UHGV virus genome: UHGV-1430915
Length of the DNA stretch: 64,000 nt
Reading direction: 5' to 3' (one strand)
Origin: a virus
In this document: positions 3,045 to 64,000 of the stretch, piece after piece
Numbering within the stretch: the first letter of the stretch is position 1
Layout of the letters: every line of letters begins with the position of its first letter
Made by a program: the position numbers and the translations under genes
Notes under the pieces: model-generated
Told to the model about the DNA's origin: nothing
The model's database searches: none
Seen by the model: the letters and a program-made list of their open reading frames with translations, nothing else

Positions 3045-3081
3045 TAATAAATAAAAAGGGGAGGGGGAGAACCCCCTCCCC
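3045..3081 (-). terminator. strong intrinsic terminator after major capsid gene
   Basis: perfect 10-bp stem GGGGAGGGGG/CCCCCTCCCC, 4-nt loop, then TTTTTATTTATT on minus strand. Confidence 0.75.
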
Positions 3082-3105: not shown

Positions 3106-4113
3106 TTAGTCACCTTTCAGAGTTGCTTTAACAACCAGCTCTGGGCGGGTGTTAACTGCCAGCATTGAAGTTTCAGATTCAATCTTCTCTTCACGCAGGT
3201 ATGCAGAGTGTTTATACCACATGTACAGTTCCTGTGCAGGGGTATTTGCTTCGTTAACATCATCTGCCGGAGCAAAGTGCAGCTGGAACATCTGATCAAT
3301 ACCCATCGGCAGGATGCGAGCCTCTTTCTTAGGAATATTGCCAGAGATATCTTCGATAAAGGTGATACCTTTATGTTCAAACACACGGTATACGCTGTCT
3401 TGACCGCCAGCACCCAGACGGCGACGCAGAGGTTCCTGAGCAGAGCCGTAATAGGTGTATGCCAGTTCTACCAGTGGGTGATGGGTAATAGCACTGAAGA
3501 ACTCCGGTGAGCACAGAGCTACAATACGATAGCCAGCTGCGTTATCGCCAGCTTGCAGCGCGATGTGCAGACGAGCCTCTTCCAGAACCTCCATAGGATC
3601 CTGATCTGCTTTTGCAGGGTCAATCTCAACAGATTTCTGTTCAACACCCCACAGAGTGTAGTAGTCATACTGACAGGTGGTGTCACCAGGTGCATAGGAT
3701 TTACCCAGAATAGCCTGGAACAGTGCTTTCTCACGCAGTGCTTCATGAGAAACACGGATACGGCGAACAACGCGGGTTACTACGTCCTGAACAGTTTTCG
3801 GAGCATCCGGGGTGAAGTAACGACGGAAGTTCTGAACATCTGCGGCAGTGATGCCTTTGTCCAGAGGGAAGAACGGGATGTTCAGGTTTTTAACCTGGGC
3901 ACGTTCACTACCAACGTAGTTACGCTCACCGCCACGACGGCGTGCCGGAATGTCGGTTACAACTTCATCAACACGCTCGATCTGAGCAATTGTTGAGGTG
4001 CCGAGACGGGTTTCGAACAGATCCATACCAGTAATCAGTCGGAATTGGCGCGGAACAAGTTCCAGAGTAGCACCTAAATCAACAATGCCAAATTCATCTT
4101 TACGAGTAATCAT
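3106..4113 (-). CDS. major capsid protein (lambda gpE-like by size and gene order)
   Basis: 335 aa; follows scaffold and decoration genes; followed by strong terminator; order terminase-portal-scaffold-decoration-capsid as in lambda. Confidence 0.7.
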   Translation of the reverse strand: MITRKDEFGIVDLGATLELVPRQFRLITGMDLFETRLGTSTIAQIERVDEVVTDIPARRRGGERNYVGSERAQVKNLNIPFFPLDKGITAADVQNFRRYFTPDAPKTVQDVVTRVVRRIRVSHEALREKALFQAILGKSYAPGDTTCQYDYYTLWGVEQKSVEIDPAKADQDPMEVLEEARLHIALQAGDNAAGYRIVALCSPEFFSAITHHPLVELAYTYYGSAQEPLRRRLGAGGQDSVYRVFEHKGITFIEDISGNIPKKEARILPMGIDQMFQLHFAPADDVNEANTPAQELYMWYKHSAYLREEKIESETSMLAVNTRPELVVKATLKGD

Positions 4114-5548: not shown

Positions 5549-6123
5549 TATTCATTGCCCTCTTCTACAACACTGATCCCGAAATTTACGTTGGTAATTT
5601 CGCCCGTCTCTTCATCAACATTACCTGTTGCCTGAATGCTTAGGCCACCAACAATGCCAGCCTTCTTAGCTTCCCATAATTCAGGATTATTGTATTTAAC
5701 TTTAGCAACCCAAGAGCCAGCCTTGATGACCTGCTCAGTACCAATTACTACAACATCAAACTCTTCTTGAATCCACGTCTTTTCAATGGTGAAAGCATCT
5801 GTGGAGGTCAAGTGGAAAAGGTTTTCAGAAACTAGGCCTGCGGCGTATGCTGCGTCCCAATTATCTTTAGCCTTTTTGATGGTGTCTTTACTCATCCACT
5901 CACCGTGAGCATCTTTAGTGTCAGGTTCGTAGATGATTTCGTAGGAAATCATTTCTTCCTGTGGCATCTTATTCCCCATGTGGATTATTTTATCACGCCA
6001 AAGGAGGTTTTGCAACCCCCTGTGTTGATAATTTTTAATTTTCCATGTTAGATATGGAATTATCTCTGGTCGATGACATCTTAGAAGTGCCGTTGCCAGT
6101 GGATCCTGCAGCCATACCATCAC
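5548..6123 (-). CDS. head morphogenesis protein (possible prohead protease or core protein); start uncertain
   Basis: ORF between portal and scaffold; track start overlaps portal by 88 nt, alternative ATG at 5979; stop overlaps scaffold start. Confidence 0.4.
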   Translation of the reverse strand: MMVWLQDPLATALLRCHRPEIIPYLTWKIKNYQHRGLQNLLWRDKIIHMGNKMPQEEMISYEIIYEPDTKDAHGEWMSKDTIKKAKDNWDAAYAAGLVSENLFHLTSTDAFTIEKTWIQEEFDVVVIGTEQVIKAGSWVAKVKYNNPELWEAKKAGIVGGLSIQATGNVDEETGEITNVNFGISVVEEGNE

Positions 6124-38495: not shown

Positions 38496-38807
38496 ATGGC
38501 TACAATACAAGAGAAACTGAATAAAATATACTGCCTGTTTGTCTATAACGGCGAGACAATTTTGGCAAATAAGGGATCCAAGAATGTGTGGACCAAGGCC
38601 AGCGGTGGTAATATAATTAACTTAGCGTTGCTACGTGAGCGCCGACACAGATTCTTTATCGAGTCTCGAATTATTGAAAGCAGCACTTGCTACAGAACAG
38701 GCGATAAAGTAATTGTTGACAATGATACGTGGTATGTGGTAGACTGGCAATCATTGAGCTGTGATGCTTCTGACAATCGTAAGTATTCCATAGTGATTGC
38801 TAAATAA
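38496..38807 (+). CDS. hypothetical protein
   Basis: 103-aa ORF downstream of promoter. Confidence 0.5.
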   Translation: MATIQEKLNKIYCLFVYNGETILANKGSKNVWTKASGGNIINLALLRERRHRFFIESRIIESSTCYRTGDKVIVDNDTWYVVDWQSLSCDASDNRKYSIVIAK

Positions 38808-38867
38808 AGGTAAATGTGAATCAGGTTTAAATAAATAGCTTTCAACTTCCAATATTAAGGATTTCTC

Positions 38868-39917
38868 ATGAATTTAACACCTCGCAGAACCATGGTACAC
38901 GGCATGAAAGAAAAACAGAACGGTTTCGAACCTATGAGTAATAAAATGTTTGGTATGCCGGGCGGTATCATGGAAACATACAGCTACCCAACACCTGTTG
39001 TTGACCACGTTCTTTATATCGACGATTTGGAAGACTTACAAGACCATATGTCTCGTCTGCAGACGATCCGTATGGCTCAGCCGGAAGAAAGCATTCGGGT
39101 GATCATCAATAGCCCTGGGGGTTGCGTGCACATTGCAATGGCTTATCTGCAGGCATTCCGAGAGTCTCAGGCAAGCGTTGTCGTACACGCTGAAGGGATG
39201 TGCTGCTCAGCAGGAACAATCTTATGGCTGGGTTGCAAAGAACGCACTGTGGCTCCGGACACAGAATTTATGTTCCACTACTATCAAGGTGGCACTTATG
39301 GTAACGGTGTGAACATGAATACTCAGGTCAGCTACTGGAAAAAACGTTTTGAACGCCTGATTGAAAAATACTACGGTGGGGTGCTGACAGAAGATGAGAT
39401 CGCATCCATCACAGCTGGCGGTGAAGTGTGGTTGGATGGAGAAGAGCTGGCATCTAGAACTGGTGCTATCATCTTGGACGATGAAAACATTCAGCGCATT
39501 CAGAATGGACAGAAACCGAAAAAGCTTTTGGCAAAAAGAGATGAAGAAGGTGTGTTAGGTGAGGCAGGCCTTCCAGAGATTCACCAATGCACATCTTTGG
39601 ACGAGCTGGTTCATGCTGTTGAGTCTGCAAAAGAAAATGGTATGAAAGGTGATGTTCACACTGTGTTCCTGAATCTACAGATGGAGAGTGGTGAGACCGT
39701 TAAGATTGCACTAGGTGAGATTACCTCGGAAGATCTGCAGCGATTCTCTGTGGTAGAGCTTCAGGACATTTTGTCCCAATTGAAAACTACCCTGAACGGA
39801 GGTGAAGAAGTTCAGGTGAAAGATAAGACTCGCAAGCGTCTGGTGGACAATATTATTAAAACAGCAAAAGAGCTTAATGAAAAAATCCTGGGCGCAGGAA
39901 TTGTCGAAGAAGCTTAA
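38868..39917 (+). CDS. ClpP-like serine protease with ~150-aa acidic C-terminal extension (possible prohead protease)
   Basis: IINSPGG, Ser in MCCSAG, His in EFMFHYYQGG match ClpP catalytic core. Confidence 0.7.
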   Translation: MNLTPRRTMVHGMKEKQNGFEPMSNKMFGMPGGIMETYSYPTPVVDHVLYIDDLEDLQDHMSRLQTIRMAQPEESIRVIINSPGGCVHIAMAYLQAFRESQASVVVHAEGMCCSAGTILWLGCKERTVAPDTEFMFHYYQGGTYGNGVNMNTQVSYWKKRFERLIEKYYGGVLTEDEIASITAGGEVWLDGEELASRTGAIILDDENIQRIQNGQKPKKLLAKRDEEGVLGEAGLPEIHQCTSLDELVHAVESAKENGMKGDVHTVFLNLQMESGETVKIALGEITSEDLQRFSVVELQDILSQLKTTLNGGEEVQVKDKTRKRLVDNIIKTAKELNEKILGAGIVEEA

Positions 39918-46241: not shown

Positions 46242-46270
46242 TTGACACAACACTTGATCTTTAGTATCAT
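46242..46270 (+). promoter_or_regulatory. sigma70-like promoter upstream of HPF homologue
   Basis: TTGACA-17 nt-TATCAT. Confidence 0.6.
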
Positions 46271-46317
46271 TATTTTCAAAGAGGGTTTGGTTCCCTCTTC
46301 TTTAAAAGGAGCACGTT

Positions 46318-52129: not shown

Positions 52130-54420
52130 ACACAATTAGTTGCCCGGCTAAAGTGCTGGAAGCACCCATAACATCTTCCAACTAAATTTCCTACCAACAC
52201 AGTTACTTACCCACCACACATGACTGTTTGCTTGTTTAGTGAGCAGTCATCCCTTGACATTCTTGCCTATCTTGATAAAATTAAGTTCTTCTCTTTTCTT
52301 TTACCGAGTAATTCGGGTTTTCTGTTCTCTTCGGTTTGAAGGGGTATGGAGATACACCTGAGTGAACAGGGTGAACAACCGAACCTTTAGCTATGGCATT
52401 AGCATGGCGAAGCGGACGGGTGACGAAAGAGGGGCCGGAGGACACCAGTCACTGCCATATAGTATATGGGTGATAACCTGAAGAGTCTGAATAAGTGTTT
52501 AAGTACCAGTCAGAGGAAAAGGTGAATGGTAGCCGAAGGGGGAGGGGGGTTTCTTATATCTTTAATTTGTATACTTTATATACACTTGTAAACCAATTCA
52601 ATTAGGATCTGTTTACCACACAAAGTGGATGGAGACAAATATCACCTATTAAACTTGAATTATTTATAGAAAATACCACAACACTACTTAAGTCTTTGAT
52701 TTTACACACAAATCCTACAGATATTCACCCTCCATATTTAACATACTTGTAACATATCCCATACTCTACCTGTCTGATCAATTTACCCAACTACATCCCC
52801 ATATTTTTCCTGTCTGTACTACCCCTGCCCCGCCGGGAGTCTCGTCATATCTGGCTTCCCAGCAAATATCACACCCACAAATATCATTGCCTGAAGAGGG
52901 TTTCATCCCATAATACATGCCTTACCTGAAGAGGGTTTCATACACCACGTAAATTTTTTAATTGACCTCCCCTGCCCCGCCGGAGAGGTTGGCTTTTCCC
53001 ACACAGACCTGAAGAGTCGGCCAGAAATATCTGAATAGGTCCAGTTCTGCCCTGTCATGAGCGGTAGCGACTGGAGTGCTGCCAGGCGGACGGAATGGGA
53101 ATACTTCTCATTTTTATAATAATTCTCAAATATCGAGGCAGTGAGGCAAATTAATAGGTCAGGCCGTTCACACAGTGGCACAACATTTGCAATCTATCTT
53201 GTGGGAGTGAATGAGAATACCTATCATTGTGAGAATGGTTATCATTACGGGCAATTTAACATAATACCCATTATGCGCACCACTGGCGATACATACAGGG
53301 ATTGATAACATGGGTTACTGTTTACGCACATAACAATTATATTTCTTACTATTTGTGCGGGATATAGTTAGCAACCAATAGATTAGATATTGACCTGCGG
53401 ACTTCTGACCGTCCAGACGTCTAAACGCCCACACAATAAGGGTTATACATACATTCCTGAATGTAAACAGGGCCGCAAAAATGCTACCATACCAGTTTGT
53501 AAATTTTTCATGCAGCACTTGACAAAGAGGAGAAAAACTTGTCTGACACTTTTGCCACTTTTGACACAATATGACACAATAACGGCTGTTACTATTCCAT
53601 ATCTCACTGTTTACGCATAGACTGTTTACGCCTGAATAGTTTACGCCCAAACTGTTTACACAGAGATGATAAGCCATGCCATTCGTTTGCATGAAAACAA
53701 TTAACAAGATAACAATTAACAAGTTAATAATCTTTCGCTGGCTATGCCAGGTGACTAGGTCACCCCTTCGGGCGTTTATATGACATAATATAAAAGCAGG
53801 GCAACTATTAGAAGATCTATAGTTGCCTTACTTGTTATGTCATGATTAACTAAATACAAGGCAACTATGATCTGAGTAATAGATTGCAGAAAAACTATCA
53901 CGGGGGTGATGGTTACTGCTTTTATATTATGTCGCGACTCCGTCGCGCCATGCCATTCGTTTGCATAGTTGCCTTATTGTTACAGGTAAAATAATTACAT
54001 TATTAATTATTTCTTATCTTTCTCTTAGTCATCTAATGATTCCAGTCAGTATAGTAATGTACAGTAAACATTAGACGACTAAAGATTTCTCTGTTTATGA
54101 TAACTCATCGTGATAATTTCGGGCTGTTTACGAAAAATGTTGACACCTGAGCTGATTTATGTTATGCAGTTTACACGAATAATTATTTTATGCAGGTATT
54201 AACTATTCCGTTATTCTGTGGTTGGAATAAATACTTTGCAGGCTATAGAATGGCGTGCGTACGTGAATTCTGAGATCTGGCGGCTATAGTTATACTCGAT
54301 TTTTCGCGTAGAACACGCTTTAGATGCTGTGTAAGTGTATGACTTATAAAGATTTTTAGTTGTTGACAAGATATTGGAGATGTGCATCAGGTTAAAATTT
54401 GTGCAATAGCGGCATTACGT
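52130..54420. repeat. 2.3-kb ORF-free repeat-rich region (candidate origin, terminus or regulatory hub)
   Basis: no credible ORF; cctgaagag motif x4, cccctgccccgccgg x2, ~13-bp-period tgtttacgc iterons x4, catgccattcgtttgcat x2, acaattaacaag x2, palindromes ggtgac-tag-gtcacc and cgcgac-tcc-gtcgcg, ~19-bp inverted repeat flanking 53780-53935. Confidence 0.6.
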
Positions 54421-54580
54421 GCACTTTTGGGAGAGAAAACGGGTAAAAATGGACTTGCTACCACACAATGAAAAATTATGCAATAGTTATTTTCCATGTA
54501 TATTTGTACAGTATGTGGGATTGATGGCTAGTCAATTATTCCACTTGCCAGGTAGGGCCGTTTATGGTAGGAGAAGAGCA

Positions 54581-54607
54581 GACAAAAAGAAAGGGGCCTA
54601 AGCCCCT
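54581..54607 (-). terminator. intrinsic terminator at 3' end of minus-strand small-gene block
   Basis: minus-strand stem AGGGGC/GCCCCT followed by TTTCTTTTTGTC. Confidence 0.6.
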
Positions 54608-54626
54608 TGATAATTCAGTTAAAAAA

Positions 54627-55046
54627 TTATAATGATTCGTATATTTCAAAAATCCGATTTGCCAGGTCGTTACGGTAGCTGAATTTTTCCTCACGTTTGA
54701 TCATAAGATCTTTATAGCCGTACTCTTTAAGCACTTCATTAACTTTATGGCGGCATACTTTCATATTATCCTGCGCGTCACCAATAAATCTGTTGCTATG
54801 GTGCATGGCTTTAATTTCTTCTTCCAGGACCAGGGCAACTATGCGGACCGGATCAAGCTGATAGGCGGTAACATCCATGCGGCATTGTAAACGGCTTTTT
54901 ACGTCTGCCACCGGATATACTGCAACCTCTTCCCCGTCAACATTGACAATAATTAGTTTACCATCGATTTCGAATCCTTTCGCCGCCGGACCGTGACAAA
55001 AAGCGTTATCAAAGCTATATGCCGGATTATTAGATTTAATGTTCAT
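54627..55046 (-). CDS. hypothetical protein
   Basis: 139-aa ORF with upstream promoter and RBS. Confidence 0.55.
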   Translation of the reverse strand: MNIKSNNPAYSFDNAFCHGPAAKGFEIDGKLIIVNVDGEEVAVYPVADVKSRLQCRMDVTAYQLDPVRIVALVLEEEIKAMHHSNRFIGDAQDNMKVCRHKVNEVLKEYGYKDLMIKREEKFSYRNDLANRIFEIYESL

Positions 55047-55094
55047 GGTGTTTTTACCTCTTAGTTAATTTTCTTACAACTTCCCTTCAAAAAA

Positions 55095-55123
55095 GAATAT
55101 AGCAAAACTGCCGATCCCTGTCA
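55095..55123 (-). promoter_or_regulatory. sigma70-like promoter
   Basis: minus strand TTGACA-17 nt-TATATT. Confidence 0.6.
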
Positions 55124-55190
55124 ACCAGGGATAGCATAATTTTTATGTGATCAAGGGGCTTTATTGCCCCTGACCATGTAACTTGTTGTA

Positions 55191-55454
55191 TTATTTGTTG
55201 CTCATCCAGTTTTCCCAAGCTGCCTGATAATCTGCCTCACTACGGCGGATCTCTTCTTGCTCTTCAAGGCGGATCTCTTCTTCCAGGTACCCCAAGATGT
55301 CAGCCTTTTTAGTCTGGCGTAGCATCCAGTCATCTTTTTTGCGAGTGAAGATCTTATAAGCTTTCTCGCAAACCTCTTTTTTGCTACCTTTCTGGACTTC
55401 AAGAACACGATAAGCCATATATTGAACTAATTTGAGCTGATCAAGACGTTTCAT
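55191..55454 (-). CDS. hypothetical protein
   Basis: 87 aa; 5' leader has hairpin GGGCC-tttt-GGCCC then CACAAAGAGG. Confidence 0.5.
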   Translation of the reverse strand: MKRLDQLKLVQYMAYRVLEVQKGSKKEVCEKAYKIFTRKKDDWMLRQTKKADILGYLEEEIRLEEQEEIRRSEADYQAAWENWMSNK

Positions 55455-55514
55455 GATGTTTACCTCTTTGTGCGGTTCTGATTAGTGGGCCTTTTGGCCC
55501 GTGTCATTATCTTA

Positions 55515-55787
55515 TTACTTATGGCGGCAGAATTCAAGCGTTTTTAATTGATAATCTTCCTCAGCTTGGAGTACGACCGCCTCGATCATTTCGTTGGCAT
55601 TGTTAAAGCCATAACCTTTAGCGAACTCATCCGCGCCACCTTCGTGATCATGTTCTGCGTTCATCGCTTCCACAAAATGGAATTCCAAATTGTTGAGGTA
55701 GGGGCTTGATGTTCCGTCCTCTTTTTCGATGAGATCCCAAATAGCATTAAAACGTGATTCGACTTCTTGATTAATCCAGCTTGACAT
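55515..55787 (-). CDS. hypothetical acidic protein
   Basis: 90 aa; leader hairpin GGGCA-cttt-TGCCC. Confidence 0.5.
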   Translation of the reverse strand: MSSWINQEVESRFNAIWDLIEKEDGTSSPYLNNLEFHFVEAMNAEHDHEGGADEFAKGYGFNNANEMIEAVVLQAEEDYQLKTLEFCRHK

Positions 55788-55841
55788 AGTGTTTTCCTCT
55801 CTCCTGGTTGTTGTGTGGGCACTTTTGCCCCTTCAAGATAA

Positions 55842-55870
55842 ATGTTACCTCACCCCATGGCAGATGTCAA
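55842..55870 (-). promoter_or_regulatory. sigma70-like promoter
   Basis: minus strand TTGACA-17 nt-TAACAT. Confidence 0.5.
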
Positions 55871-56004
55871 CGGTTTTTATAGTTCTTATATGACAGGCAG
55901 GCCCGGTGATTGTCTCCCCCTGTTCCCAAGTGCCGCCCGTTTAATAAGAATAGCAAAAGGGGCCGAACAAGTCAACCCCAAAATCAGTACCAAAACACTT
56001 TTAT

Positions 56005-56316
56005 TTATACGGTCCGATCATTGGCCTTTGTCCAGGACCTGGCGATCCGTTTCCCGGTCACCTGGAACGGAGGCTGCATTGTGTGTAATGAGTCCAGAGT
56101 AAGGGAGGACCGTTTACGGCGTATCTTCAGGATCGCTAACGTATTGTCCATCTCACGGCCAGGTCCTGGGCGGTATGGTGTGCCTCCAGCGTTAAGGTTG
56201 ATGATCTCATGTATTGAGATCCGGCGTTGTTTTGCTTCCGCATCTTTGAAGATAGCCAGCGGAGGCGCTATGCGTTGCCGATACCAATCTAAAACGGTTG
56301 GCGTAATAGCGATCAT
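56005..56316 (-). CDS. hypothetical protein
   Basis: 103-aa ORF; ATGA overlap with upstream gene. Confidence 0.4.
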   Translation of the reverse strand: MIAITPTVLDWYRQRIAPPLAIFKDAEAKQRRISIHEIINLNAGGTPYRPGPGREMDNTLAILKIRRKRSSLTLDSLHTMQPPFQVTGKRIARSWTKANDRTV

Positions 56317-56504
56317 ATTTTACCCCCTATGTAGTCCGGTCGGTTTTTCTCTGTCATACGCTTAAGCAATTCTTGCATGTTGCTTATGGCTTGTAGTGTA
56401 TCCTCTTCAAGGGATGAATCAAGATAATCAGGATCATTCTTCACCTTGCAATGATTATGATAACGCAGCACCGCCAGTACTTTTTTAACTTCTTCCGCTG
56501 TCAT
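56313..56504 (-). CDS. hypothetical protein
   Basis: 63-aa ORF. Confidence 0.45.
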   Translation of the reverse strand: MTAEEVKKVLAVLRYHNHCKVKNDPDYLDSSLEEDTLQAISNMQELLKRMTEKNRPDYIGGKI

Positions 56505-56649
56505 TATCGCGCCTAAAACAATGAGTTAATATATAACACCAGATCGCTGACTACCAGGACAACATTAATCAGCACATACCTAACCATAAAGGGAAAGATC
56601 GCCAACATTGCCTCCACGATCCCCATGGTAATAATTATCTTTCTCATGG

Positions 56650-56934
56650 TTAACGGTTCACGTAAGTTTTCCCGTTTACGGTTATCGGCAGATCCTCCAG
56701 GTCTGGATCTTCTTTAAGGTCGTGAGCAAGTTCACCGCACCGAACGCCCTCGAATCCGTAGTACTCTGTCGTGCCATCCTGGAAAGTTTTAGCGGCAAGG
56801 CATAGGCGATAAGTAACACCGATTTGATTGACGGCATGGATATCAGTTAGATCTACCTCTTTTGCCAGCTCTTTGGCCATTACAGGCGCATTAAGTCCAA
56901 CAACCAGGGCAACCACTGCGATCATCTTTTTCAT
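56650..56934 (-). CDS. secreted or periplasmic protein
   Basis: N-terminal signal-peptide-like MKKMIAVVALVVGLNAPVMA. Confidence 0.55.
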   Translation of the reverse strand: MKKMIAVVALVVGLNAPVMAKELAKEVDLTDIHAVNQIGVTYRLCLAAKTFQDGTTEYYGFEGVRCGELAHDLKEDPDLEDLPITVNGKTYVNR

Positions 56935-57025
56935 TGTATCTATCCTCTTTCTGCTACGTTTAAGGCGGCGGCAACCGCCTGTTTATGCTTTGTTGGTTAA
57001 TTTTCGGGTATCGGTATAAATTAAA

Positions 57026-57241
57026 CTATACTGTACGCTCAACTATAACAACGGCTTGAGGGATCTCACCTTCCACCACTATCAAGGCTTTTTTCTGCGT
57101 AATGGATATCTTTACCCGCTTCAGCGTGGCGGTAAAGTCTTTCATTTCGTCGCGTGGTGTTTTAGTGCAATGCCAGATCTCAGGCTTACCTATTTGCAAG
57201 CCGCGTAAAAATTCTGTTTTGCCTGTTTTGTTAGTGATCAT
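57026..57241 (-). CDS. hypothetical protein
   Basis: 71-aa ORF. Confidence 0.45.
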   Translation of the reverse strand: MITNKTGKTEFLRGLQIGKPEIWHCTKTPRDEMKDFTATLKRVKISITQKKALIVVEGEIPQAVVIVERTV

Positions 57242-57250
57242 TTGCCAACC

Positions 57251-57355
57251 TCACCCGATACCGTTGGAAGACAAGATCACATTAGCCATGGTTGCAATCA
57301 GGCCAATACCTAGGGCAATAACCAGGATCACCGCATCAATTAATTTCTGTTTCAT
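57251..57355 (-). CDS. small membrane peptide (34 aa)
   Basis: not in ORF track; ATG after AGAGGAAAACAAA; MKQKLIDAVILVIALGIGLIATMANVILSSNGIG. Confidence 0.4.
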   Translation of the reverse strand: MKQKLIDAVILVIALGIGLIATMANVILSSNGIG

Positions 57356-57445
57356 TTTGTTTTCCTCTTCTTGTTCCAGGTGGCGGACCATTCCACCGCC
57401 TTATGTATTATGCTTTGTAAGATGGTTGTTTGTTTTCAAACTATT

Positions 57446-57625
57446 TTAACGATAATCATCGTACGCTTTATTAACCTGGCGAATATAACATTCAAAAGCC
57501 AGATCAATAGATTTATATTCACGGATATACTCACCATAGGAAACCACATACATTTCTATAGCTTCCTCATATGCGAGGAGAATAGAATCCAAGCCTACGA
57601 TCTCAGTCTTTGCAATAATAGCCAT
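57446..57625 (-). CDS. hypothetical protein (59 aa)
   Basis: not in ORF track (below 60 aa); leader CCACAAAGAGGATAAAAATC-ATG with upstream hairpin GGGGC-ttg-CCCC. Confidence 0.45.
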   Translation of the reverse strand: MAIIAKTEIVGLDSILLAYEEAIEMYVVSYGEYIREYKSIDLAFECYIRQVNKAYDDYR

Positions 57626-57696
57626 GATTTTTATCCTCTTTGTGGTTGGTGGGGCTTGCCCCTTTGATTTATATACTACAGTCTTATAGGGTCATG

Positions 57697-57930
57697 TCAA
57701 CTATTTTCAAAAAATTTTTCTGCTGTGATATTCTTCCCGGTCGGATTAGCTACTTTTAAAATTCTATCATGCACCGGACGCCCAAAAGAATAAGATCCGT
57801 ATACAGTAAACCAATAATCGCCGTCGGGCTGCACTATTACCGCTGCATAGGGTACGCCTTTTTCGTTATTGTTTACAAAATAGATCACATTGCCGTTAAT
57901 AGCCTCGGCGCGTTTAACTTGTTCAATCAT
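57697..57930 (-). CDS. hypothetical protein
   Basis: 77 aa; leader hairpin GGGGCC-ttttc-GGCCCC. Confidence 0.5.
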   Translation of the reverse strand: MIEQVKRAEAINGNVIYFVNNNEKGVPYAAVIVQPDGDYWFTVYGSYSFGRPVHDRILKVANPTGKNITAEKFFENS

Positions 57931-57993
57931 GATGATTTACCCCTCTTTATTTTTTTCATAATTTCAGGAGGGGCCTTTTCGGCCCCGCCAGGT

Positions 57994-58278
57994 TTATTTA
58001 TTGATGGCGTGCAACGGGAAAGGTACGCCAGGTTGATAAATAACTTTTACAACCTCATCAGGGCAAAAGAAATTGCAGAATTCTCCCCGGTAAGCTTCAT
58101 CTTCTTTTAATTCTTCGTCAACATACTCAAAAAAGTAGTCGATGCTTGGATAATCCTGGCCGGGATTATAGTCGACCATCGTTAATAGTAACTCTTGATC
58201 ATTCCGTAGGATATGCATACCCGCTTTTAAGTATTTTGCTTCCATTTCTACTACATCGCCAACGGTAACAATAGCCAT
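57994..58278 (-). CDS. hypothetical acidic protein
   Basis: 94 aa; leader hairpin GGGGGC-cg-CCCCC. Confidence 0.5.
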   Translation of the reverse strand: MAIVTVGDVVEMEAKYLKAGMHILRNDQELLLTMVDYNPGQDYPSIDYFFEYVDEELKEDEAYRGEFCNFFCPDEVVKVIYQPGVPFPLHAINK

Positions 58279-58505
58279 GGTTTTAACTCCTATCTATCCG
58301 GTTAATGATTGGGGGCCGCCCCCCTGATACGTCCTATTATCCATATTGTAGGGCTTGATGCAAGTACTTCTTTAAATTTTTTTTTTAAGCGCCTTGGGGG
58401 CCGCTGTAACGCTAAAATAATAAAGGCCATGCAACCGCATAGCCTTTATGTGATTATATCGCTTCAGGCCCTGCTAGGGGCCTTATTTTGCATCATTTGC
58501 CGGAA

Positions 58506-58805
58506 TTATTCAGAGAAAACATCGTTCACAATAGCGATCACAATGCCGCCCACCTTGTCACGGTCAACAATGCACAAATCACCATAGATCATGTGGTAGT
58601 CTGGATGATCTTTCACGGAATAGTCAATGAGCGTTTTCTTGTCGTCCAGCTTTGTAACTTCCATTCTCATAACGATACGAGAATCATCAAAGGCATTATT
58701 CCGAAAAGTCATAGCCTGACCACCAGGGCACCCAGTGATCTCCACTTCCACGCCGTCTACGATCTGACCATCAAAGAAATAAAGATTATTGGCGGGTATA
58801 AACAT
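58506..58805 (-). CDS. hypothetical protein
   Basis: start moved to ATG 58805 (MFIPANN...) because AAAGGAG RBS lies inside track N-terminus. Confidence 0.5.
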   Translation of the reverse strand: MFIPANNLYFFDGQIVDGVEVEITGCPGGQAMTFRNNAFDDSRIVMRMEVTKLDDKKTLIDYSVKDHPDYHMIYGDLCIVDRDKVGGIVIAIVNDVFSE

Positions 58806-58850
58806 GATCATTGCTCCTTTTTGCACTGATTATTTTAACAGGGTTTAAAT

Positions 58851-58894
58851 TTACTTTATTGATGGCCCTGGAGTCAAGGCCATCTAAAAATAAA
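58851..58894. repeat. 44-bp intergenic repeat, copy 1
   Basis: ttactttattGATGGCCctggagtcaaGGCCATCtaaaaataaa; 7-bp inverted repeat; TTGACT on minus strand in loop. Confidence 0.85.
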
Positions 58895-58896
58895 TT

Positions 58897-59097
58897 TTAC
58901 AGATCTACAATCTCTTTAATTCGTTTTACTGCTGCCTCAGCGCCTTGAGGGTAGAAATTATGATAACCAATCACGCGGGTAATACTGATCGCCGCTTGGT
59001 GGTCCTCGTAGTCGCCTTTGAATATTTCTTGACCATCAACCAGCACAGCAATTTTTTCTTCTTTTTTGAAGTTAATAACGCGGATATTGTTGCTCAT
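58897..59097 (-). CDS. hypothetical protein
   Basis: 66 aa; leader hairpin GGGGAG-tgt-CTCCCC. Confidence 0.5.
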   Translation of the reverse strand: MSNNIRVINFKKEEKIAVLVDGQEIFKGDYEDHQAAISITRVIGYHNFYPQGAEAAVKRIKEIVDL

Positions 59098-59242
59098 TTT
59101 GTTTCTCCTTTTGGAACTTTGTCTGTGTGGTGGGGAGTGTCTCCCCGTTGATTGTTATTATCCATATTCTGGACCGGATTGCAACATTCAGGAAGAAAAA
59201 TTTTTTGAAAAAAGTTAGGCCCCCAGGGATCGGGGGCCGTTA

Positions 59243-59362
59243 TCAGTTGCTTACAGCGATAAAATACATCCCTACGCCTAACAATATTTCAAGGGCGATG
59301 ATCTCCAGCCATACCATAACACGGCGCGCCTTATCGGTGCGGGGCTTATCCTTGGGTGTCAT
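59243..59362 (-). CDS. small membrane peptide (39 aa)
   Basis: not in ORF track; ATG after AGGAGG; C-terminal hydrophobic segment; partly overlaps another small TM ORF (59346..59471). Confidence 0.35.
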   Translation of the reverse strand: MTPKDKPRTDKARRVMVWLEIIALEILLGVGMYFIAVSN

Positions 59363-59581
59363 CGTCTCCCTCTTTCCTCCTGTTAGTAGTGACGTGGTTT
59401 ACAATGGTCCCCAGGAGTACTATCGCCACGCACATTACGAGAAAAATTATTTCTTCCGTTGTTCGGTCCATTGTTATAAAACCTCTCAAGATCAGGCCTA
59501 AAAGTAAATCTTTCGTTATTGAATCCGTCACGCCAGGCGGCTGGCTTCAAATCTTCACTAAATGGATTAATTAACGTGGCA

Positions 59582-59953
59582 TTATTTAAACGGTTGGCCC
59601 ACATATTTTCTATTCCTCTCAAATAGGCGATCCGCCTCAGTTAAACATATCTCATGGGCGTGATCTCTGGTTTTAGCTTCATCAAAAACCTGTTGTGCAA
59701 GGCTGCAACGTAGGGAGACTGGAAGATCACTATAATAGGCGTTGACAAACGTTTGAGCGTCGTACAGGTCTGAAAATACTTTACCCTTTCTATTATTCCC
59801 CTTGTCAACAATTGCAAGGATAACCAATACAATAGTTGCAACCACCCCCAGGAAAATAGATATAATAAACCATAAAAAGGCGGATCTTCCCATCTTGCCA
59901 GCGATCCAGGCGTTAAACAAGGCAACCAATATAGCCAAAATAATAAATTCCAT
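59582..59953 (-). CDS. membrane protein with two TM helices
   Basis: MEFIILAILVALFNAWIA and FLWFIISIFLGVVATIVLVILAIV then soluble C-terminal domain. Confidence 0.55.
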   Translation of the reverse strand: MEFIILAILVALFNAWIAGKMGRSAFLWFIISIFLGVVATIVLVILAIVDKGNNRKGKVFSDLYDAQTFVNAYYSDLPVSLRCSLAQQVFDEAKTRDHAHEICLTEADRLFERNRKYVGQPFK

Positions 59954-60019
59954 TCTATGTACCCTCTTACAATTCTGCGTAGCAATAAGGCGGCAAATAT
60001 GCCGCCGCCTGTTACCTGA

Positions 60020-60400
60020 TTAAAAATTATCGCCGTAAATCTTTCCGCTTTCTACCCATACCACCACGCGAGGCATACTATCCCACACGTCTTGTTTTAG
60101 ATTGAGCGCGTGCAATTCTTCGGTGGTGCTCATACCGGGCACGGGCTGATTGTATACTGCAAAACGACCACCCGCATAATCATAGGCCAGGGTTAAATCA
60201 CACTGGATCATCTTTTTGATCATGGCATTAAGCATGGCGTTAGCCGCATATTGATCACGTTTTAAAGGCAACTCTTTGATTAGTTTGCGATAGTTTTCGA
60301 TATGGTCGCACACTGTTTCACGAGGAAGATCTTTCATATCTTCACGGAATGTAACCAGGTTAAACATAACGGTGTCAATAGCCTTGGTAGTGTTTTTCAT
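60020..60400 (-). CDS. hypothetical protein
   Basis: start set at ATG 60400 after CAAAGAGGAAAACATC; leader hairpin 60422-60441. Confidence 0.5.
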   Translation of the reverse strand: MKNTTKAIDTVMFNLVTFREDMKDLPRETVCDHIENYRKLIKELPLKRDQYAANAMLNAMIKKMIQCDLTLAYDYAGGRFAVYNQPVPGMSTTEELHALNLKQDVWDSMPRVVVWVESGKIYGDNF

Positions 60401-60489
60401 GATGTTTTCCTCTTTGTTTTGTGTGGGGCAAGTCATCTCGCCCCTTGAGTTTTAATATAGCAGGTTTTTAGATTATTGCAACACTTTAT

Positions 60490-61113
60490 TTATGAAAAAC
60501 TCATCTCCCCATATTCATCCACATCAAACCGCCAATCATTGGCTTCAATAAGGCCGATCAGGTTTTCGGTAGTAAACTGTTCAAGATAGGCCCCCTCCAG
60601 GTCTACGTAAACCTTGCGGGATAGCTCCCGTACCGTCTCGGTGATCAGCTCTTCCAGCTCTTCAACTTTATCCTCTTGCTTGGTGGTCAGGTCTAGCCAA
60701 TTAGTATCGATGCACCCTCCTATTGTGTTTTCGTGGTGATAATGGCTAAACGGGATACGTTCAACACTAGCTGATAACTCGCCATCGTGCATTGTGCCGA
60801 ACAAGTGACGAATTGATCGGAACTTGGTCAGGGCCTTGACTTTACGCAAGAATTTTTCTAAATCCACGTTTTCAGCACTGATTGACGCGCCATCGCCTTG
60901 ACACCAAAAGCCGGACCAACGTACTTCGGTATCTTCAAGGCCGTACTCTGGAAAGACATATTCTTTATAGTGTTCAATTACGCTTTCTGCAAAAAAATTA
61001 TCCCCGCTGTGTTCTTCTCTTTCGCGTACCATTTCAATGGCTTTTTCTTTTTGTTCGTCGGTCAGCACGTCGAAAGATAAATTGTAACCTGTGGTAATGT
61101 TAACGGTGGTCAT
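60490..61113 (-). CDS. hypothetical acidic protein
   Basis: 207 aa; own promoter and leader hairpin. Confidence 0.55.
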   Translation of the reverse strand: MTTVNITTGYNLSFDVLTDEQKEKAIEMVREREEHSGDNFFAESVIEHYKEYVFPEYGLEDTEVRWSGFWCQGDGASISAENVDLEKFLRKVKALTKFRSIRHLFGTMHDGELSASVERIPFSHYHHENTIGGCIDTNWLDLTTKQEDKVEELEELITETVRELSRKVYVDLEGAYLEQFTTENLIGLIEANDWRFDVDEYGEMSFS

Positions 61114-61130
61114 GATATTTTCTCCTGTTT

Positions 61131-61149
61131 TCTTTGTTAGTGGCGGGAA
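61131..61149 (-). promoter_or_regulatory. conserved 5'-leader hairpin GGCGGGAA-N4-TTCCCGCC
   Basis: perfect 7-8 bp stem just downstream of predicted transcription start; near-identical copy at 63661-63679, partial copy at 62983-62995. Confidence 0.5.
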
Positions 61150-61159
61150 GTTTTCCCGC

Positions 61160-61187
61160 CTGTGTGTTTAATTATACTTATTGAGAT
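61160..61187 (-). promoter_or_regulatory. sigma70-like promoter
   Basis: minus strand TTGACA-16 nt-TATAAT. Confidence 0.65.
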
Positions 61188-61448
61188 TTACTTGTCAACA
61201 CTATTTTTTAAATTATTGTGGCGCAAAATGTTTAAAATCTCTTCAACGTCATCAACACGGCGGCAATTTTTAAACGCTACCAATTGCCCCATGATTTTAA
61301 TCACTGGGCGGCCTTGCCAGTGCCCTTGGAGAAAGCGCGCCTTGACTTTATCGGTGGAACTATCACGCCACCAAATAGCCTTGTTGTTGCAGTAGTAAAA
61401 ATTATTCAGGATAACATCAACTTTATCAAAATTTTTTAATTTACGCAT
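61188..61448 (-). CDS. hypothetical protein
   Basis: 86-aa ORF with promoter at 61481-61509. Confidence 0.5.
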   Translation of the reverse strand: MRKLKNFDKVDVILNNFYYCNNKAIWWRDSSTDKVKARFLQGHWQGRPVIKIMGQLVAFKNCRRVDDVEEILNILRHNNLKNSVDK

Positions 61449-61480
61449 GGCGTTTACTCCTTCCTCTCTTTGATGTGGTT

Positions 61481-61509
61481 AGTATAGCTAACCTGTTGAC
61501 GATGTCAAT
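61481..61509 (-). promoter_or_regulatory. sigma70-like promoter
   Basis: minus strand TTGACA-17 nt-TATACT. Confidence 0.6.
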
Positions 61510-61666
61510 GATATTTTTAACGCCATAAAACGGCCCTGGGCGATGTTTTCAGGTTAAAGGGGGCGATTGCATAGGCGGGGGCCTTTTTGGCGCTTACAGG
61601 GCCAACCAGGGGCGCTATTCGTAGGATAGAAATAAAAAGCCCCGCACAATGGCGGGGCGTTGGTTG

Positions 61667-61864
61667 TTATTTGTCTTTATGGCGGTATCGTTCTGCCTGT
61701 CGTTCACGTTCCAAAAGTAGGCCGGGCAATTTACGATCATAATGATTACGCCAGATCTTCCCAAACCTTTTTGGCTTATTCAGTTTATTGTTACGCTGGC
61801 GGCGTTCTGGCAGCTCTTCGGAATCATGAGGGCGCTTTACAATTTTCTCGAAATTAATTTTCAT
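61667..61864 (-). CDS. small highly basic protein
   Basis: start set at ATG 61864 after GGGGG; Arg/Lys-rich. Confidence 0.5.
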   Translation of the reverse strand: MKINFEKIVKRPHDSEELPERRQRNNKLNKPKRFGKIWRNHYDRKLPGLLLERERQAERYRHKDK

Positions 61865-62207
61865 ATATTCCCCCTTTGCTAACTTCAATATTGGCCTGAA
61901 TAGCCCGGATACGGCGCTTTATAACTTCCTGATCTGTGTGGTCGTATCCCCAAAAGTCTACAATTTTTGCGCCACCCGCCTCCAGGCGGTATAGTGTTTC
62001 CTGCATTTTGTAAGCCGGGATCGGTCGCGGTGTTACTTGGTCACCTTCTTTATTTTTATACTTTATAATATAATCTTCGTTATCGTTGAATGCCCAAAAT
62101 GGATATTCTGCAAGGGCGGTACTTCCTCTTTCCTTTTTATCCTGGATCTTATTTACAATTAAAGCCGTAGCAATAGCGCCAATAATAAAACTAGCCCCGC
62201 TAATCAT
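61854..62207 (-). CDS. membrane-anchored protein
   Basis: N-terminal TM segment ISGASFIIGAIATALIV. Confidence 0.5.
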   Translation of the reverse strand: MISGASFIIGAIATALIVNKIQDKKERGSTALAEYPFWAFNDNEDYIIKYKNKEGDQVTPRPIPAYKMQETLYRLEAGGAKIVDFWGYDHTDQEVIKRRIRAIQANIEVSKGGIYEN

Positions 62208-62283
62208 GTGTACTTTCTCCTTTCATGGTGTTAATAAATTATCTTTATAGATGGCCCTGCAACCAGGACCACCGAAAAAATAA

Positions 62284-62529
62284 CTATTTCACAATGCCTA
62301 CAAAACAGATCCCACCTTCACCTATGTAAGCAATATCGGTAACTTTATAATTTGTCAAGATCTGTTTATTTAGTTCATTAATAAAATCGGTCATTGCGTT
62401 GGTGTAGTTGTCTTCCATATCTAAGGCATAATCCCAGGCGTAAACCTTTTTACGTCCGAAGCCTTTTACCATGATACGGGCGCTTTTGGTGTTGGTGGGC
62501 GCATAATATTTGGTGATTAGTGCTGCCAT
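62284..62529 (-). CDS. hypothetical protein
   Basis: 81-aa ORF downstream of repeat copy 2, GAGGAG RBS. Confidence 0.5.
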   Translation of the reverse strand: MAALITKYYAPTNTKSARIMVKGFGRKKVYAWDYALDMEDNYTNAMTDFINELNKQILTNYKVTDIAYIGEGGICFVGIVK

Positions 62530-62570
62530 GGTTTTAACTCCTCATTAGTTCAGTGTTAACAGTGTAAAGT

Positions 62571-62614
62571 TTACTTTATTGATGGCCCTGGAGTCAAGGC
62601 CATCTAAAAATAAA
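62571..62614. repeat. 44-bp intergenic repeat, copy 2
   Basis: identical to 58851-58894. Confidence 0.85.
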
Positions 62615-62615
62615 T

Positions 62616-62957
62616 TTACTCGTTTTCTTCCAGCTCTGAAAGCTCTTCTTTCACTTCTTCGAGCTCTGTCTGCAATTCTTGGTACTCTTCATCGTCCTCA
62701 ATATCCAGGCTGTCGATGTAGTCGCTAAATCCGCAGCGGTAAGCGATAGGATCTAGCTCCTTGAGGATACGCGACGGAAGAAAAGAAATGTTTCCGATCA
62801 TAATTTCGCCGTAGATCTCGTCTAACCATTCATCATAGTTTTCGTCGTACTTGTCCTCGTCGATTTCAAAGTTATCGATCTTGTTCTCAAGGTCTGCGAT
62901 CTGTTTTTTCAGCGCGGCGATCTGCATAGCTTTTTCTGCGGCGGTCATAGTAGTCAT
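62616..62957 (-). CDS. highly acidic coiled-coil protein (candidate DNA mimic)
   Basis: 113 aa, very Asp/Glu-rich C-terminal half. Confidence 0.55.
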   Translation of the reverse strand: MTTMTAAEKAMQIAALKKQIADLENKIDNFEIDEDKYDENYDEWLDEIYGEIMIGNISFLPSRILKELDPIAYRCGFSDYIDSLDIEDDEEYQELQTELEEVKEELSELEENE

Positions 62958-63008
62958 GGTGTTTTCTCCTTTTGTGTGTTCTGGGAAGTTTTCCCGTTTA
63001 CGTGTTTA

Positions 63009-63036
63009 AGTATACCGATTTGGGTTAGCTTGTCAA
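63009..63036 (-). promoter_or_regulatory. sigma70-like promoter
   Basis: minus strand TTGACA-16 nt-TATACT; followed by leader hairpin 62983-62995. Confidence 0.6.
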
Positions 63037-63191
63037 TTAAAAATTTAAGAAAAATTTTGCAAAACTGTTGGCGCTACTCATTAACATTTGCGCCAGGATG
63101 TAACCGACAACGCAAACGATAATAGTTACCTTTGTGTATTGGCGTGTAGTGCTCATCTTAAAGCCCCCTTTTTCGCTTAACTGAGATTAGT

Positions 63192-63235
63192 TTACTTTAT
63201 TGATGGCCCTGGAGTCAAGGCCATCTAAAAATAAA
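63192..63235. repeat. 44-bp intergenic repeat, copy 3
   Basis: identical core to 58851-58894. Confidence 0.85.
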
Positions 63236-63236
63236 C

Positions 63237-63641
63237 TTAGTAAGTTTTCAGTACTTTCCCGTCCAACCTGTCAAGCTGGATCTCGATAGCTGCAGAAAAC
63301 CTATTGTACACCACGTCGCCCATGGAATCCAACCAGTCTATGACGTTATACACTTGCTCTTTGTTCTTGCAGGTCCGGATCCGTTTCATGATGTAAGCCG
63401 GATCAATATTGGTGCTCTCGTTGGTGCTCCCCTGTACCTGGTTTGCCGTATTAGTCACATCTTTAATGGCCTTTACCACCACCTGGAAGGGCTTTAAGGT
63501 GCCTTTTGCGTTCATCTCACGCGCTTTTGCGGCGCGGTTGTTATAGGTTACACAACGGCGGCAAATGTTCACCAAATGCATGTCAATAATTTTTTCATCG
63601 TTTGCCAGTTCGTTCATGATGCGGCGTACGTTCTTATTCAT
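63237..63641 (-). CDS. hypothetical protein
   Basis: 134-aa ORF with promoter and leader hairpin. Confidence 0.55.
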   Translation of the reverse strand: MNKNVRRIMNELANDEKIIDMHLVNICRRCVTYNNRAAKAREMNAKGTLKPFQVVVKAIKDVTNTANQVQGSTNESTNIDPAYIMKRIRTCKNKEQVYNVIDWLDSMGDVVYNRFSAAIEIQLDRLDGKVLKTY

Positions 63642-63660
63642 GATCTTTTTCCTTTGTGTT

Positions 63661-63679
63661 GGCGGGAAACATTCCCGCC
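63661..63679 (-). promoter_or_regulatory. conserved 5'-leader hairpin GGCGGGAA-N4-TTCCCGCC
   Basis: second copy of the hairpin at 61131-61149. Confidence 0.5.
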
Positions 63680-63689
63680 TTTTGTGACT

Positions 63690-63717
63690 AGTTTACTTGA
63701 ATTTTGCAGCGTGTCAA
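63690..63717 (-). promoter_or_regulatory. sigma70-like promoter (weaker -10)
   Basis: minus strand TTGACA-16 nt-TAAACT. Confidence 0.45.
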
Positions 63718-63722
63718 CAATT

Positions 63723-63966: not shown

Positions 63967-64000
63967 AGATCGGAAGAGCGTCGTGTAGGGAAAGAGTGTA
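63967..64000. other. Illumina TruSeq adapter (sequencing artifact, not biological)
   Basis: agatcggaagagcgtcgtgtagggaaagagtgta matches the standard adapter AGATCGGAAGAGCGTCGTGTAGGGAAAGAGTGT. Confidence 0.95.

Follow-up and report, generated by a model that had tools for sequence, protein, structure and literature searches.

Promoter-early stem-loop-type cassettes in the orphan-gene-rich region of an rV5-like coliphage

What is the role of a GC-rich hairpin that follows, or encloses part of, the promoter of one small phage gene after another? This question is raised by a block of minus-strand genes at positions 54581-63722 of the UHGV virus genome UHGV-1430915, of which a stretch of 64,000 nucleotides (nt), hereafter the window, was analysed. 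An initial annotation had described this block as about 24 small genes, organised in units that would each carry a near-consensus sigma70 promoter, a hairpin at the predicted 5' end of the transcript and a conserved ribosome-binding site (RBS), and had suggested that the hairpins stabilise the messenger RNAs (mRNAs) or bind a regulator. Our results indicate that the observation is real but over-generalised, and that this interpretation is supported in part. The reading that we favour, with a probability of roughly 60%, is that the block represents an orphan-gene-rich hyperplastic early region of an rV5-like phage, built from cassettes of the promoter-early stem-loop (PeSL) type, with a dual punctuation role of the stem-loops in RNA together with a role of the cassettes in recombination.

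Two classes of promoter-anchored hairpins

The phage is a Vequintavirus (an rV5-like coliphage), its block being 96% identical to that of Escherichia phage ECP2303 and 91-95% identical to those of many other members of the genus, in whose genomes it forms the distal 10 kb of a long leftward transcription unit. On the minus strand, from 63641 down to 54627, we recovered 27 small open reading frames (ORFs; g1 to g27) with Shine-Dalgarno (SD) sequences, distributed over 19 units that are separated by 19 intergenic gaps of 60-227 nt, 8 of the genes being translationally coupled to the preceding one. This bears out the array of about 24 small genes first described, and the same region carries 24-27 annotated genes in the relatives. 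Pfam assigned no family to 26 of the 27 products, and PHROGs returned unknown function beyond g6 (61667-61864, 65 amino acids, basic), which matches the Pfam family Phage_1_1 (T7 gp1.1, PF08200, E 2.6e-11). For this set of products, which had initially been said to fit host takeover or anti-defence, such a function is putative.

A complete cassette, hereafter class I, occupies 9 of the 19 gaps (ahead of g1, g3, g8, g9, g14, g16, g18, g25 and g26) and reads, in order, as a sigma70 promoter, 8-13 nt, a hairpin with a G-rich 5' arm, a loop and a C-rich 3' arm, an A/C-rich leader, and the SD sequence with its ATG. The promoters score 9 to 12 of 12 against the consensus, in class I with spacers of 16-17 nt, as initially claimed, and in the block generally with spacers of 16-18 nt. 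They are preceded by AT-rich tracts upstream of the -35 hexamer, such as aaaaattg before g1, aaatttttaa before g3 and aaaaaaaaaatttaaag before g16. The gap between the -10 hexamer and the hairpin is tight (8-13 nt) and the distance from hairpin to ATG variable (19-34 nt), while stems (4-10 bp) and loops (3-5 nt) differ between the cassettes of the window, complementarity alone being common to them.

A second arrangement, class II, had been overlooked: a T-rich UP-like tract is followed by a hairpin with the -35 hexamer in its loop. It is found in five gaps (g2, g4, g5, g15 and g27), with a sixth element in the g24/g25 gap, upstream of the class I cassette, and three of these elements are copies of a repeat (D1; preceded by the AT-rich tract aaatttattttta) that match each other exactly over 24 nt and at 86-100% over 63 nt. 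The window thus holds the hairpin in two registers, 8-13 nt after the -10 hexamer in 9 units and around the -35 hexamer in 6 elements. The remaining gaps show that the cassette is not, as had been stated, a property of each unit: three of them (g17, g19 and g21) contain a hairpin and an RBS without a convincing promoter, g10 has only a terminator in its preceding gap, and g7 has a promoter (TTGACA-16-TATACT, 61481..61508, minus strand) without associated hairpin, providing an internal negative example. A loose ACAAAGAGGAAAACATC-ATG initiation region does recur, and of the 6 copies of its strict core CAAAGAGGnnAAA in the whole window, 4 lie in the block.

This layout is not a product of chance. 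Shuffled windows yielded about 2 promoter-hairpin pairs per 64 kb, counting both strands, whereas the real window contains 6 stringent and 3 weaker pairs, all of them located on a single strand within 9 kb and upstream of an SD sequence and ATG. For a non-circular count, we considered 34 promoter-SD-ATG units from five phage regions with a hairpin cut-off of -5 kcal/mol or better. A hairpin accompanied 29 of these 34 units versus 21% of the shuffles, and lay 7-13 nt after the -10 hexamer in 13 of them versus 1.7% of the shuffles; relative to the end of the -10 hexamer, the hairpin starts form three clusters (-37, -25 to -13 and +9 to +15) with none elsewhere, whereas the starts in shuffles are evenly spread. 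A chance origin of the cassette layout is therefore excluded. In the 136-kb genome of ECP2303, hardly any cassette lies outside the orthologous region at 1-11 kb. The plus-strand array of the window (40.8-52.1 kb), tightly packed, lacks the layout as initially noted, except for one case at 46242-46299 (plus strand), where TTGACA-17-TATCAT is followed by AAGAGGGTTTGGTTCCCTCTT and AAGGAG-ATG, with a hairpin that reads as a terminator on the minus strand too.

Conservation among relatives was assessed for 9 cassettes in about 15 Vequintavirus orthologues, and a search of IMG/VR and metagenomes with the g8 protein provided about 6 further close loci. The hairpin is kept in nearly all of the orthologues at a constant distance from the -10 hexamer, with changing loops, so that the elements whose conservation in related phages had been put forward as a check are indeed conserved. 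Mean pairwise diversity increases from the -35 hexamer (0.000), the -10 hexamer (0.053), the SD sequence (0.068) and the stems (0.072) to the initial transcribed gap (0.093), the spacer (0.108), the leader (0.123) and the loops (0.176). Little divergence of both promoter hexamers and stems beside freely varying loops argues for real promoters and for selection on stem pairing. Stem conservation was judged by refolding each sequence, together with this diversity by element. The g9 orthologues, for instance, keep the stem around loops reading atga, tgat, gacgt or acgtc, and those of g16 have GGGGG/CCCCC, GGGGGC/GCCTCC or GGAGGT/GCCTCC stems, including one clear compensatory change (GGGGG/CCCCC to GGAGG/CCTCC); wobble pairs occur in stems elsewhere. 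Structure rather than sequence is maintained, as stems differ between cassettes, yet are conserved among orthologues. In phage V18 (about 5600-5640), the g16 hairpin gives way to a run of about 17 G, due to either hypervariability of the G-tract or a homopolymer sequencing error.

In the predicted 5' untranslated regions (5'UTRs), the folding predictions are dominated by the 5'-proximal hairpin, and the SD sequence and AUG mostly stay unpaired, except at g14, where a weak predicted helix of 4 bp covers the SD sequence. Strong folding (z-scores of -4.2 to -4.7) is predicted for g1, g8 and g9, and moderate folding for g14, g19 and g26. Transcription starts predicted at the pyrimidine-purine dinucleotide 7-8 nt after the -10 hexamer would put the hairpin at about +2 to +5, leaving 2-4 unpaired nt. 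No transcription-start or transcriptome data, and no mapped 5' ends, were found in the literature for Vequintavirinae.

The initial statement that the hairpins lack U-tracts and are not terminators proved correct: the 8 nt following class I and D1 hairpins contain 0-3 T within A/C-rich sequence, which rules them out as canonical terminators. The U-tract of an intrinsic terminator is found only at 55979-55959 and at five plain terminators of the block (61639-61658, 59988-60010, 59218-59238, 58420-58449 and 54591-54608). Hairpin promoters of the N4 type were also rejected, as sigma70 promoters lie upstream, stems and loops are unfit and ECP2303 has no annotated virion RNA polymerase. Rfam gave no family match in the block at gathering thresholds, and chance-level matches only at E<=1.

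Kinship with PeSL cassettes and occurrence in other phages

The closest known system, missed by the initial annotation together with its recombination aspect, is the PeSL cassette of the T4-type phages RB49/phi1, PST/T4 and nt-1/KVP40, which is concentrated in orphan-gene hyperplastic regions and mediates modular shuffling (Arbiol et al. 2010, PMC2839356; Comeau et al. 2014, PMC4122927). Its definition includes stem-loops over the -35 hexamer or downstream of the -10 hexamer, and G-T pairs were noted in it (PMC2839356). The traits shared by the present block are an AT-rich upstream tract, a near-consensus sigma70 promoter, a promoter-adjacent G_n-loop-C_n stem-loop with G-T pairs, an SD sequence with start codon at the 3' end, variable registers, repetition within a few kb, location in an orphan-rich hyperplastic region, and indels or replacements between close relatives with recombination at the cassettes (seen across 9-15 genomes). 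Judged from their sequences, both classes of this phage fall within the PeSL definition. The differences concern the lineage (Vequintavirinae, with Stephanstirmvirinae and Asteriusvirus in addition, in place of T4-likes), the dominance of the post-10, in-transcript register, which is a minor class in RB49/phi1, and the absence of a U-rich tail from most stem-loops. Our data fit a cassette known from T4-like phages, present here in a further phage lineage in which the post-promoter register dominates. The literature search yielded no report of such cassettes or hairpins in rV5-like, phAPEC8-like or Asteriusvirus phages, the rV5 genome paper giving 33 promoters and 20 terminators only.

Other known elements share part of these traits. 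The 5' stem-loops of ompA, papA and the T7 gene 10 leader resemble class I in a hairpin that lies, in class I by prediction, a few nt from the 5' end, an open leader, a strong SD sequence and a conserved structure; they differ in that 5' ends are only predicted here (with 2-4 unpaired nt) and that the present element also occurs in non-transcribed registers. Intrinsic terminators and terminator-promoter pairs are likewise GC-rich and intergenic, and the element at 55979-55947 is a true hairpin with a T-tract overlapping a promoter, but a U-tract is absent after class I and D1 hairpins, and the predicted start site of a class I promoter is upstream of its hairpin. Repetitive extragenic palindromic (REP) hairpins are also repeated GC-rich palindromes between cistrons of read-through transcripts, but the present elements have no sequence similarity to REP and are tied to promoters.

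Signs of gene shuffling were sought at three junctions among 9-15 genomes. Among the relatives, gene content varies after g15 as well as in the g18-g19 and g21-g25 intervals. Two of the three junctions fall in parts of cassettes, one in an SD-ATG repeat and one at the margin of the hairpin 55979-55959, whereas a plain deletion accounts for the third. Between g18 and g19, ECP2303 has an extra gene flanked by two conserved SD-ATG segments, of which the window has one fused copy. Five phages switch genes at 55958, at the 3' edge of the class II hairpin 55979-55959, their alternative allele carrying the hairpin ACAGGGCTTGCAATGGTCCTGT followed by TTTTTTG and TATACT, again with the -35 hexamer in the loop. 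The g8 cassette of phage V18 is a chimera that contains a 33-nt tract identical to the g3 cassette, the switch lying inside the hairpin. No cassette is involved in the deletion after g15; in the g15-g16 gap, positions 58493-58505 retain the last ~12 nt (atgcaaaataa) of a 116-amino-acid gene present in ECP2303 and most relatives, a remnant from which we conclude that this gene was deleted in the present phage.

The layout extends to four other genera. The class I arrangement precedes at least 8 genes of phAPEC8 (Stephanstirmvirinae), and a 153-kb IMG/VR contig related to this phage contains at least 7 hairpin copies, all between a promoter and an SD sequence; the 20-mer GTAGGGCGGCAATGGTGCCG is identical in at least 7 phAPEC8-like cassettes despite differing spacers and leaders. 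Seunavirus SSE121 combines class I cassettes with hairpins in the spacer or around the -10 hexamer, Certrevirus DU_PP_IV has almost only these spacer and -10 registers (hairpin starts of -25 to -13 in both genera, against -37 and +9 to +15 in the window), and phAPEC6, an unrelated jumbo Asteriusvirus, shows class I in 5 of the 6 gaps near its homologue of g23 (83% nucleotide identity). The stem-loop is always anchored to a promoter, and its register differs by lineage. At 83-87% nucleotide identity, the g23 gene itself (56313-56504, 63 amino acids) is shared with phAPEC6, WPEC3 and further jumbo Asteriusvirus phages, in which the neighbours of the homologue carry the same promoter-hairpin-RBS cassettes. 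In GenBank, the GTAGGGCGGCAATGGTGCCG hairpins of phAPEC8 at 556-575, 937-956, 1787-1806 and 3202-3221 are labelled 'putative promoter determined with PHIRE', and class I hairpins of phage Alma at 533-557 and 3048-3069 are annotated 'terminator'; both labels look wrong.

A wider interpretation, which we put forward tentatively and hold to be rather doubtful, is that the cassette constitutes a portable gene-cassette system shared by unrelated coliphages (Vequintavirinae, Stephanstirmvirinae, jumbo Asteriusvirus and T4-likes), with orphan genes travelling with the cassettes or recombining at them and the hairpin acting as crossover or recognition point. Gene traffic or a shared recognition factor would then be reflected in the near-identical hairpin cores found across genera, GTAGGGCGGCAATGGTGCC in phAPEC8-like phages and Seunavirus, and TTACATAGAGCGG.GGAAT(A/G)GT in phAPEC8 and phAPEC6.

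Candidate roles of the stem-loops

In the reading that we favour, each cassette would be an autonomous unit from which host RNA polymerase expresses a gene highly and early in infection, its stem-loop acting as RNA punctuation. On its own transcript, a 5'-proximal hairpin would slow 5'-end-dependent decay while leader and SD sequence stay single-stranded; on read-through transcripts, the same hairpin, now intercistronic, would attenuate transcription or protect 3' ends. The cassette sequences shared between units would in addition serve as crossover points that shuffle orphan genes. A role on the own transcript is argued by g14, g16 and g25, which have a true terminator upstream and yet a post-promoter hairpin, not needed there against upstream transcripts. 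By contrast, a stem-loop lying inside the promoter (Certrevirus, partly Seunavirus) or around the -35 hexamer (class II) is absent from the mRNA of that promoter, so that stabilisation of 5' ends cannot explain the whole family, and the class II and Certrevirus stem-loops would act only on read-through RNA or on DNA.

A pure form of the alternative proposed initially, in which protection of the transcript against decay dependent on RppH and RNase E is the sole selected function of the hairpin, is unlikely. Among phages, the T7 gene 10 leader is known for such a stabilising 5' structure. The principle is established, 5' structures stabilising Escherichia coli mRNAs because these enzymes need single-stranded 5' ends (PMC3997798). 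Both the tight spacing of hairpins from the -10 hexamer, in the face of their variable distance to ATG, and their presence at g14, g16 and g25 despite a real terminator upstream are in line with it, and stabilisation in the class I register is plausible. It cannot, however, be the only role of the family: besides the class II, most Certrevirus and some Seunavirus stem-loops that are located inside promoters, the hairpin-RBS units without promoter (g17, g19 and g21) stand against it, and with 2-4 nt the predicted tails offer no clear protection.

We are also doubtful that the stem-loops are only attenuators or terminators of upstream transcription, as in the original PeSL reading, their presence in downstream 5'UTRs being incidental. 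This single function would cover all registers; the stem-loop of an RB49 PeSL cut expression of a downstream lacZ as strongly as rrnB T1 (PMC2839356), the 55979-55947 element is a genuine terminator overlapping a promoter, and the annotators of phage Alma called class I hairpins terminators. On the other hand, the scarcity of T after class I and D1 hairpins, with 0-3 in the next 8 nt of A/C-rich sequence, does not suit such a function, a terminator placed after a promoter would abort the transcripts of that promoter too, and an attenuator would be redundant at g14, g16 and g25.

More improbable is a binding site for a phage or host factor, either an RNA hairpin that times translation or decay or a DNA palindrome used as operator for early shut-off. 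The positions of the hairpins (at -35, in the spacer or at -10, or centred near +12) are those where operators block RNA polymerase, and the identical phAPEC8-like 20-mers, as well as loops of the GAAT(A/G)GTTC type that recur across genera, would suit sequence recognition. In the window, however, stems, stem lengths and loops all differ, loops are the most variable part among orthologues, several stems contain G.U pairs and no candidate binding protein was identified; the operator version ranks low, as half-site sequence and spacing vary between cassettes.

Still less credit can be given to a pure DNA recombination signal, with inverted repeats cut or paired (e.g. as cruciforms, by endonuclease VII) and devoid of RNA function. 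Junctions and the V18 chimera do lie at or in hairpins and ECP2303 encodes an endonuclease VII, but one junction falls in an SD-ATG segment and another is a deletion without cassette, G.T stem positions weaken cruciforms while RNA tolerates them, and the anchoring to promoters would stay unexplained. Finally, it is hardly credible that the hairpins terminate antisense transcription entering on the plus strand from the convergent gene array. Four hairpins are flagged terminator-like on that strand (e.g. GGCGGGAAACATTCCCGCC then TTTTGT), but a decent T-tract follows just one and is wholly lacking at most, and neither the fixed distance to minus-strand promoters nor the G-first orientation is explained.

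Several points weigh against the favoured reading. No U-tracts accompany the hairpins, and classical termination of read-through transcripts is not predicted. The 5' ends are predicted ones, and since RppH and RNase E need at least 2, and preferably at least 3, single-stranded 5' nt (PMC8833179), tails of 2-4 nt are at or above this minimum and protection may be only partial. The hairpins of g3, g16, g18 and g25 are individually no better than shuffles (z-scores of -0.15 to -1.4). Formal covariation among the orthologues is thin (1-2 compensatory pairs with MAFFT/RNAalifold), because divergence is low and MAFFT misaligns runs of G and C. A strand test comparing G.U with A.C pairs was not significant over all hairpins including those of coding regions (43 vs 30), the asymmetry being only suggestive for intergenic elements. 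The constant register could in part stem from common descent of duplicated cassettes rather than from selection, and the hairpin GTAGGGCGGCAATGGTGCCGC, identical across phAPEC8-like copies, hints at a sequence-specific recognition for which the model has no need.

The rV5-like, phAPEC8-like and jumbo coliphages are in wide use in phage therapy collections, and the cassettes provide a concrete regulatory grammar for their large early regions of orphan genes. They extend the PeSL idea beyond T4-like phages, and correct the database annotation of hairpins labelled 'terminator' or PHIRE 'putative promoter'. The same element in transcribed and non-transcribed registers constitutes a natural test set to separate roles as 5' stabiliser, attenuator or recombination site, and the cassettes may represent ready-made, compact and strong expression units for E. 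coli engineering.

Individual elements and neighbouring features

All elements of the block described here are on the minus strand. The g1 cassette (63661..63717) consists of TTGACA-16-TAAACT (63717-63690), 10 nt and the hairpin GGCGGGAAtgtTTCCCGCC (63679-63661), upstream of the ATG at 63641; its predicted 5'UTR folds with a z-score of -4.26, and its stem is invariant in 14 orthologues around a variable loop. The g8 cassette (61142..61198) combines a perfect promoter (TTGACA-16-TATAAT, 12/12), 10 nt and the hairpin GGCGGGAAaacTTCCCGCC (z-score -4.66), which had been located at 61131-61149 with a 4-nt loop; the hairpin is present, but at 61142-61160 and with a loop of 3 nt. Its paralogue is the degenerate g3 cassette (62983..63036; repeats D2/D3), with TTGACA-16-TATACT, 13 nt and the weak hairpin GGGAAaacTTCCC (62995-62983, z-score -1.18). 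At g9 (60425..60481), TTGCAA-16-(TG)TATATT is followed after 9 nt by GGGGCGAGatgaCTTGCCCC, which includes a G.U pair (z-score -4.24).

Upstream terminators accompany the next two cassettes. The g14 cassette (59132..59184; TTGCAA-16-GATAAT, 10 nt, GGGGAGacaCTCCCC, z-score -2.80) is preceded by a canonical one at 59218-59238, and the g16 cassette (58311..58364; CTTGCA-17-GATAAT, 11 nt, GGGGGgcggCCCCC, fold not better than shuffles) by terminator-like hairpins at 58420-58449 and 58466-58483. The g18 cassette (57651..57700) has TTGACA-16-TAGTAT, 10 nt and the weak hairpin GGGGcaagCCCC (z-score -0.71), the g25 cassette (55817..55870) TTGACA-17-TAACAT, 10-11 nt and the weak hairpin GGGCAaaagTGCCC (z-score -1.36), and the g26 cassette (55487..55537) TTGAAT-17-TAAGAT, 8 nt and GGGCCaaaaGGCCC (z-score -2.84).

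Among the hairpin-RBS units, g17 has the hairpin GGGGCCgaaaaGGCCCC (57970..57986) 39 nt before its ATG at 57930, with 2 T in the next 8 nt, and g21 the hairpin AGGCGGTtgccGCCGCCT (56963..56980) without convincing promoter. The hairpin of g19 (AGGCGGTGGaatgGTCCGCCACCT, z-score -2.09; element at 57378..57439) is accompanied by a promoter-like TTGAAA...CATAAT with a 21-nt spacer, the element reading in ECP2303 as a proper promoter (TTGACA-17-CATAAT).

Class II comprises the D1 copies upstream of g2 (63177..63239), g4 (62556..62618, hairpin 62604-62581) and g15 (58836..58898, hairpin 58884-58861). In the g2 copy, a T-rich UP-like tract precedes the 10-bp hairpin GATGGCCTTGACTCCAGGGCCATC (63225-63202), which holds the -35 hexamer TTGACT in its loop and arm, and the -10 hexamer is TAAACT. 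A diverged D1 copy upstream of g5 (62225..62287) forms the hairpin GGTGGTCCTGgttgCAGGGCCATC (62273-62250) with two G.U pairs. The overlapping terminator and promoter of the g24/g25 gap (55947..55979) comprises the hairpin GGGGTTGACTTGTTCGGCCCC (55979-55959) followed by TTTTGC, a genuine hairpin and T-tract, with TTGACT in the loop as -35 hexamer and TATTCT as -10 hexamer. The g27 promoter (55096..55132; TTGACA-17-(TG)TATATT) has its -35 hexamer enclosed by the hairpin ATCCCTGGTTGACAGGGAT and no hairpin after the -10 hexamer.

Outside the block, the region 52200-54600 between the convergent arrays is ORF-poor and AT-rich (GC 0.34-0.43). In addition to three GTTTACGC... iterons spaced by 15 nt (53609-53659), it has a number of inverted repeats of the type GGCAACTAT/ATAGTTGCC (53.78-53.98 kb) and an exact repeat of 20 nt (53673 and 53947). 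This stretch, which may serve as replication origin, is probably the counterpart of the box marked 'non-coding' on the rV5 map. Six tRNA genes are clustered at 10349-11157 (minus strand). In the divergent promoter region of ECP2303, outside the window, a gene encoding 346 amino acids (38737-39777) has a strong PHROG match to an HNH endonuclease family and weak ones to the 'decoy of host sigma70' and 'Srd anti-sigma factor' families; it is speculation that this gene bears on the Srd suggestion of the rV5 paper. The last 34 bases of the window (63967-64000) read on the minus strand as TACACTCTTTCCCTACACGACGCTCTTCCGATCT, an Illumina TruSeq adapter left at an untrimmed contig end, and homology to every relative ends at 63966. 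More than 20 GenBank records named 'Campylobacter phage' (e.g. MG065646 and MG065647) are ~93% identical to this E. coli phage block, and are probably mislabelled or contaminant genomes.

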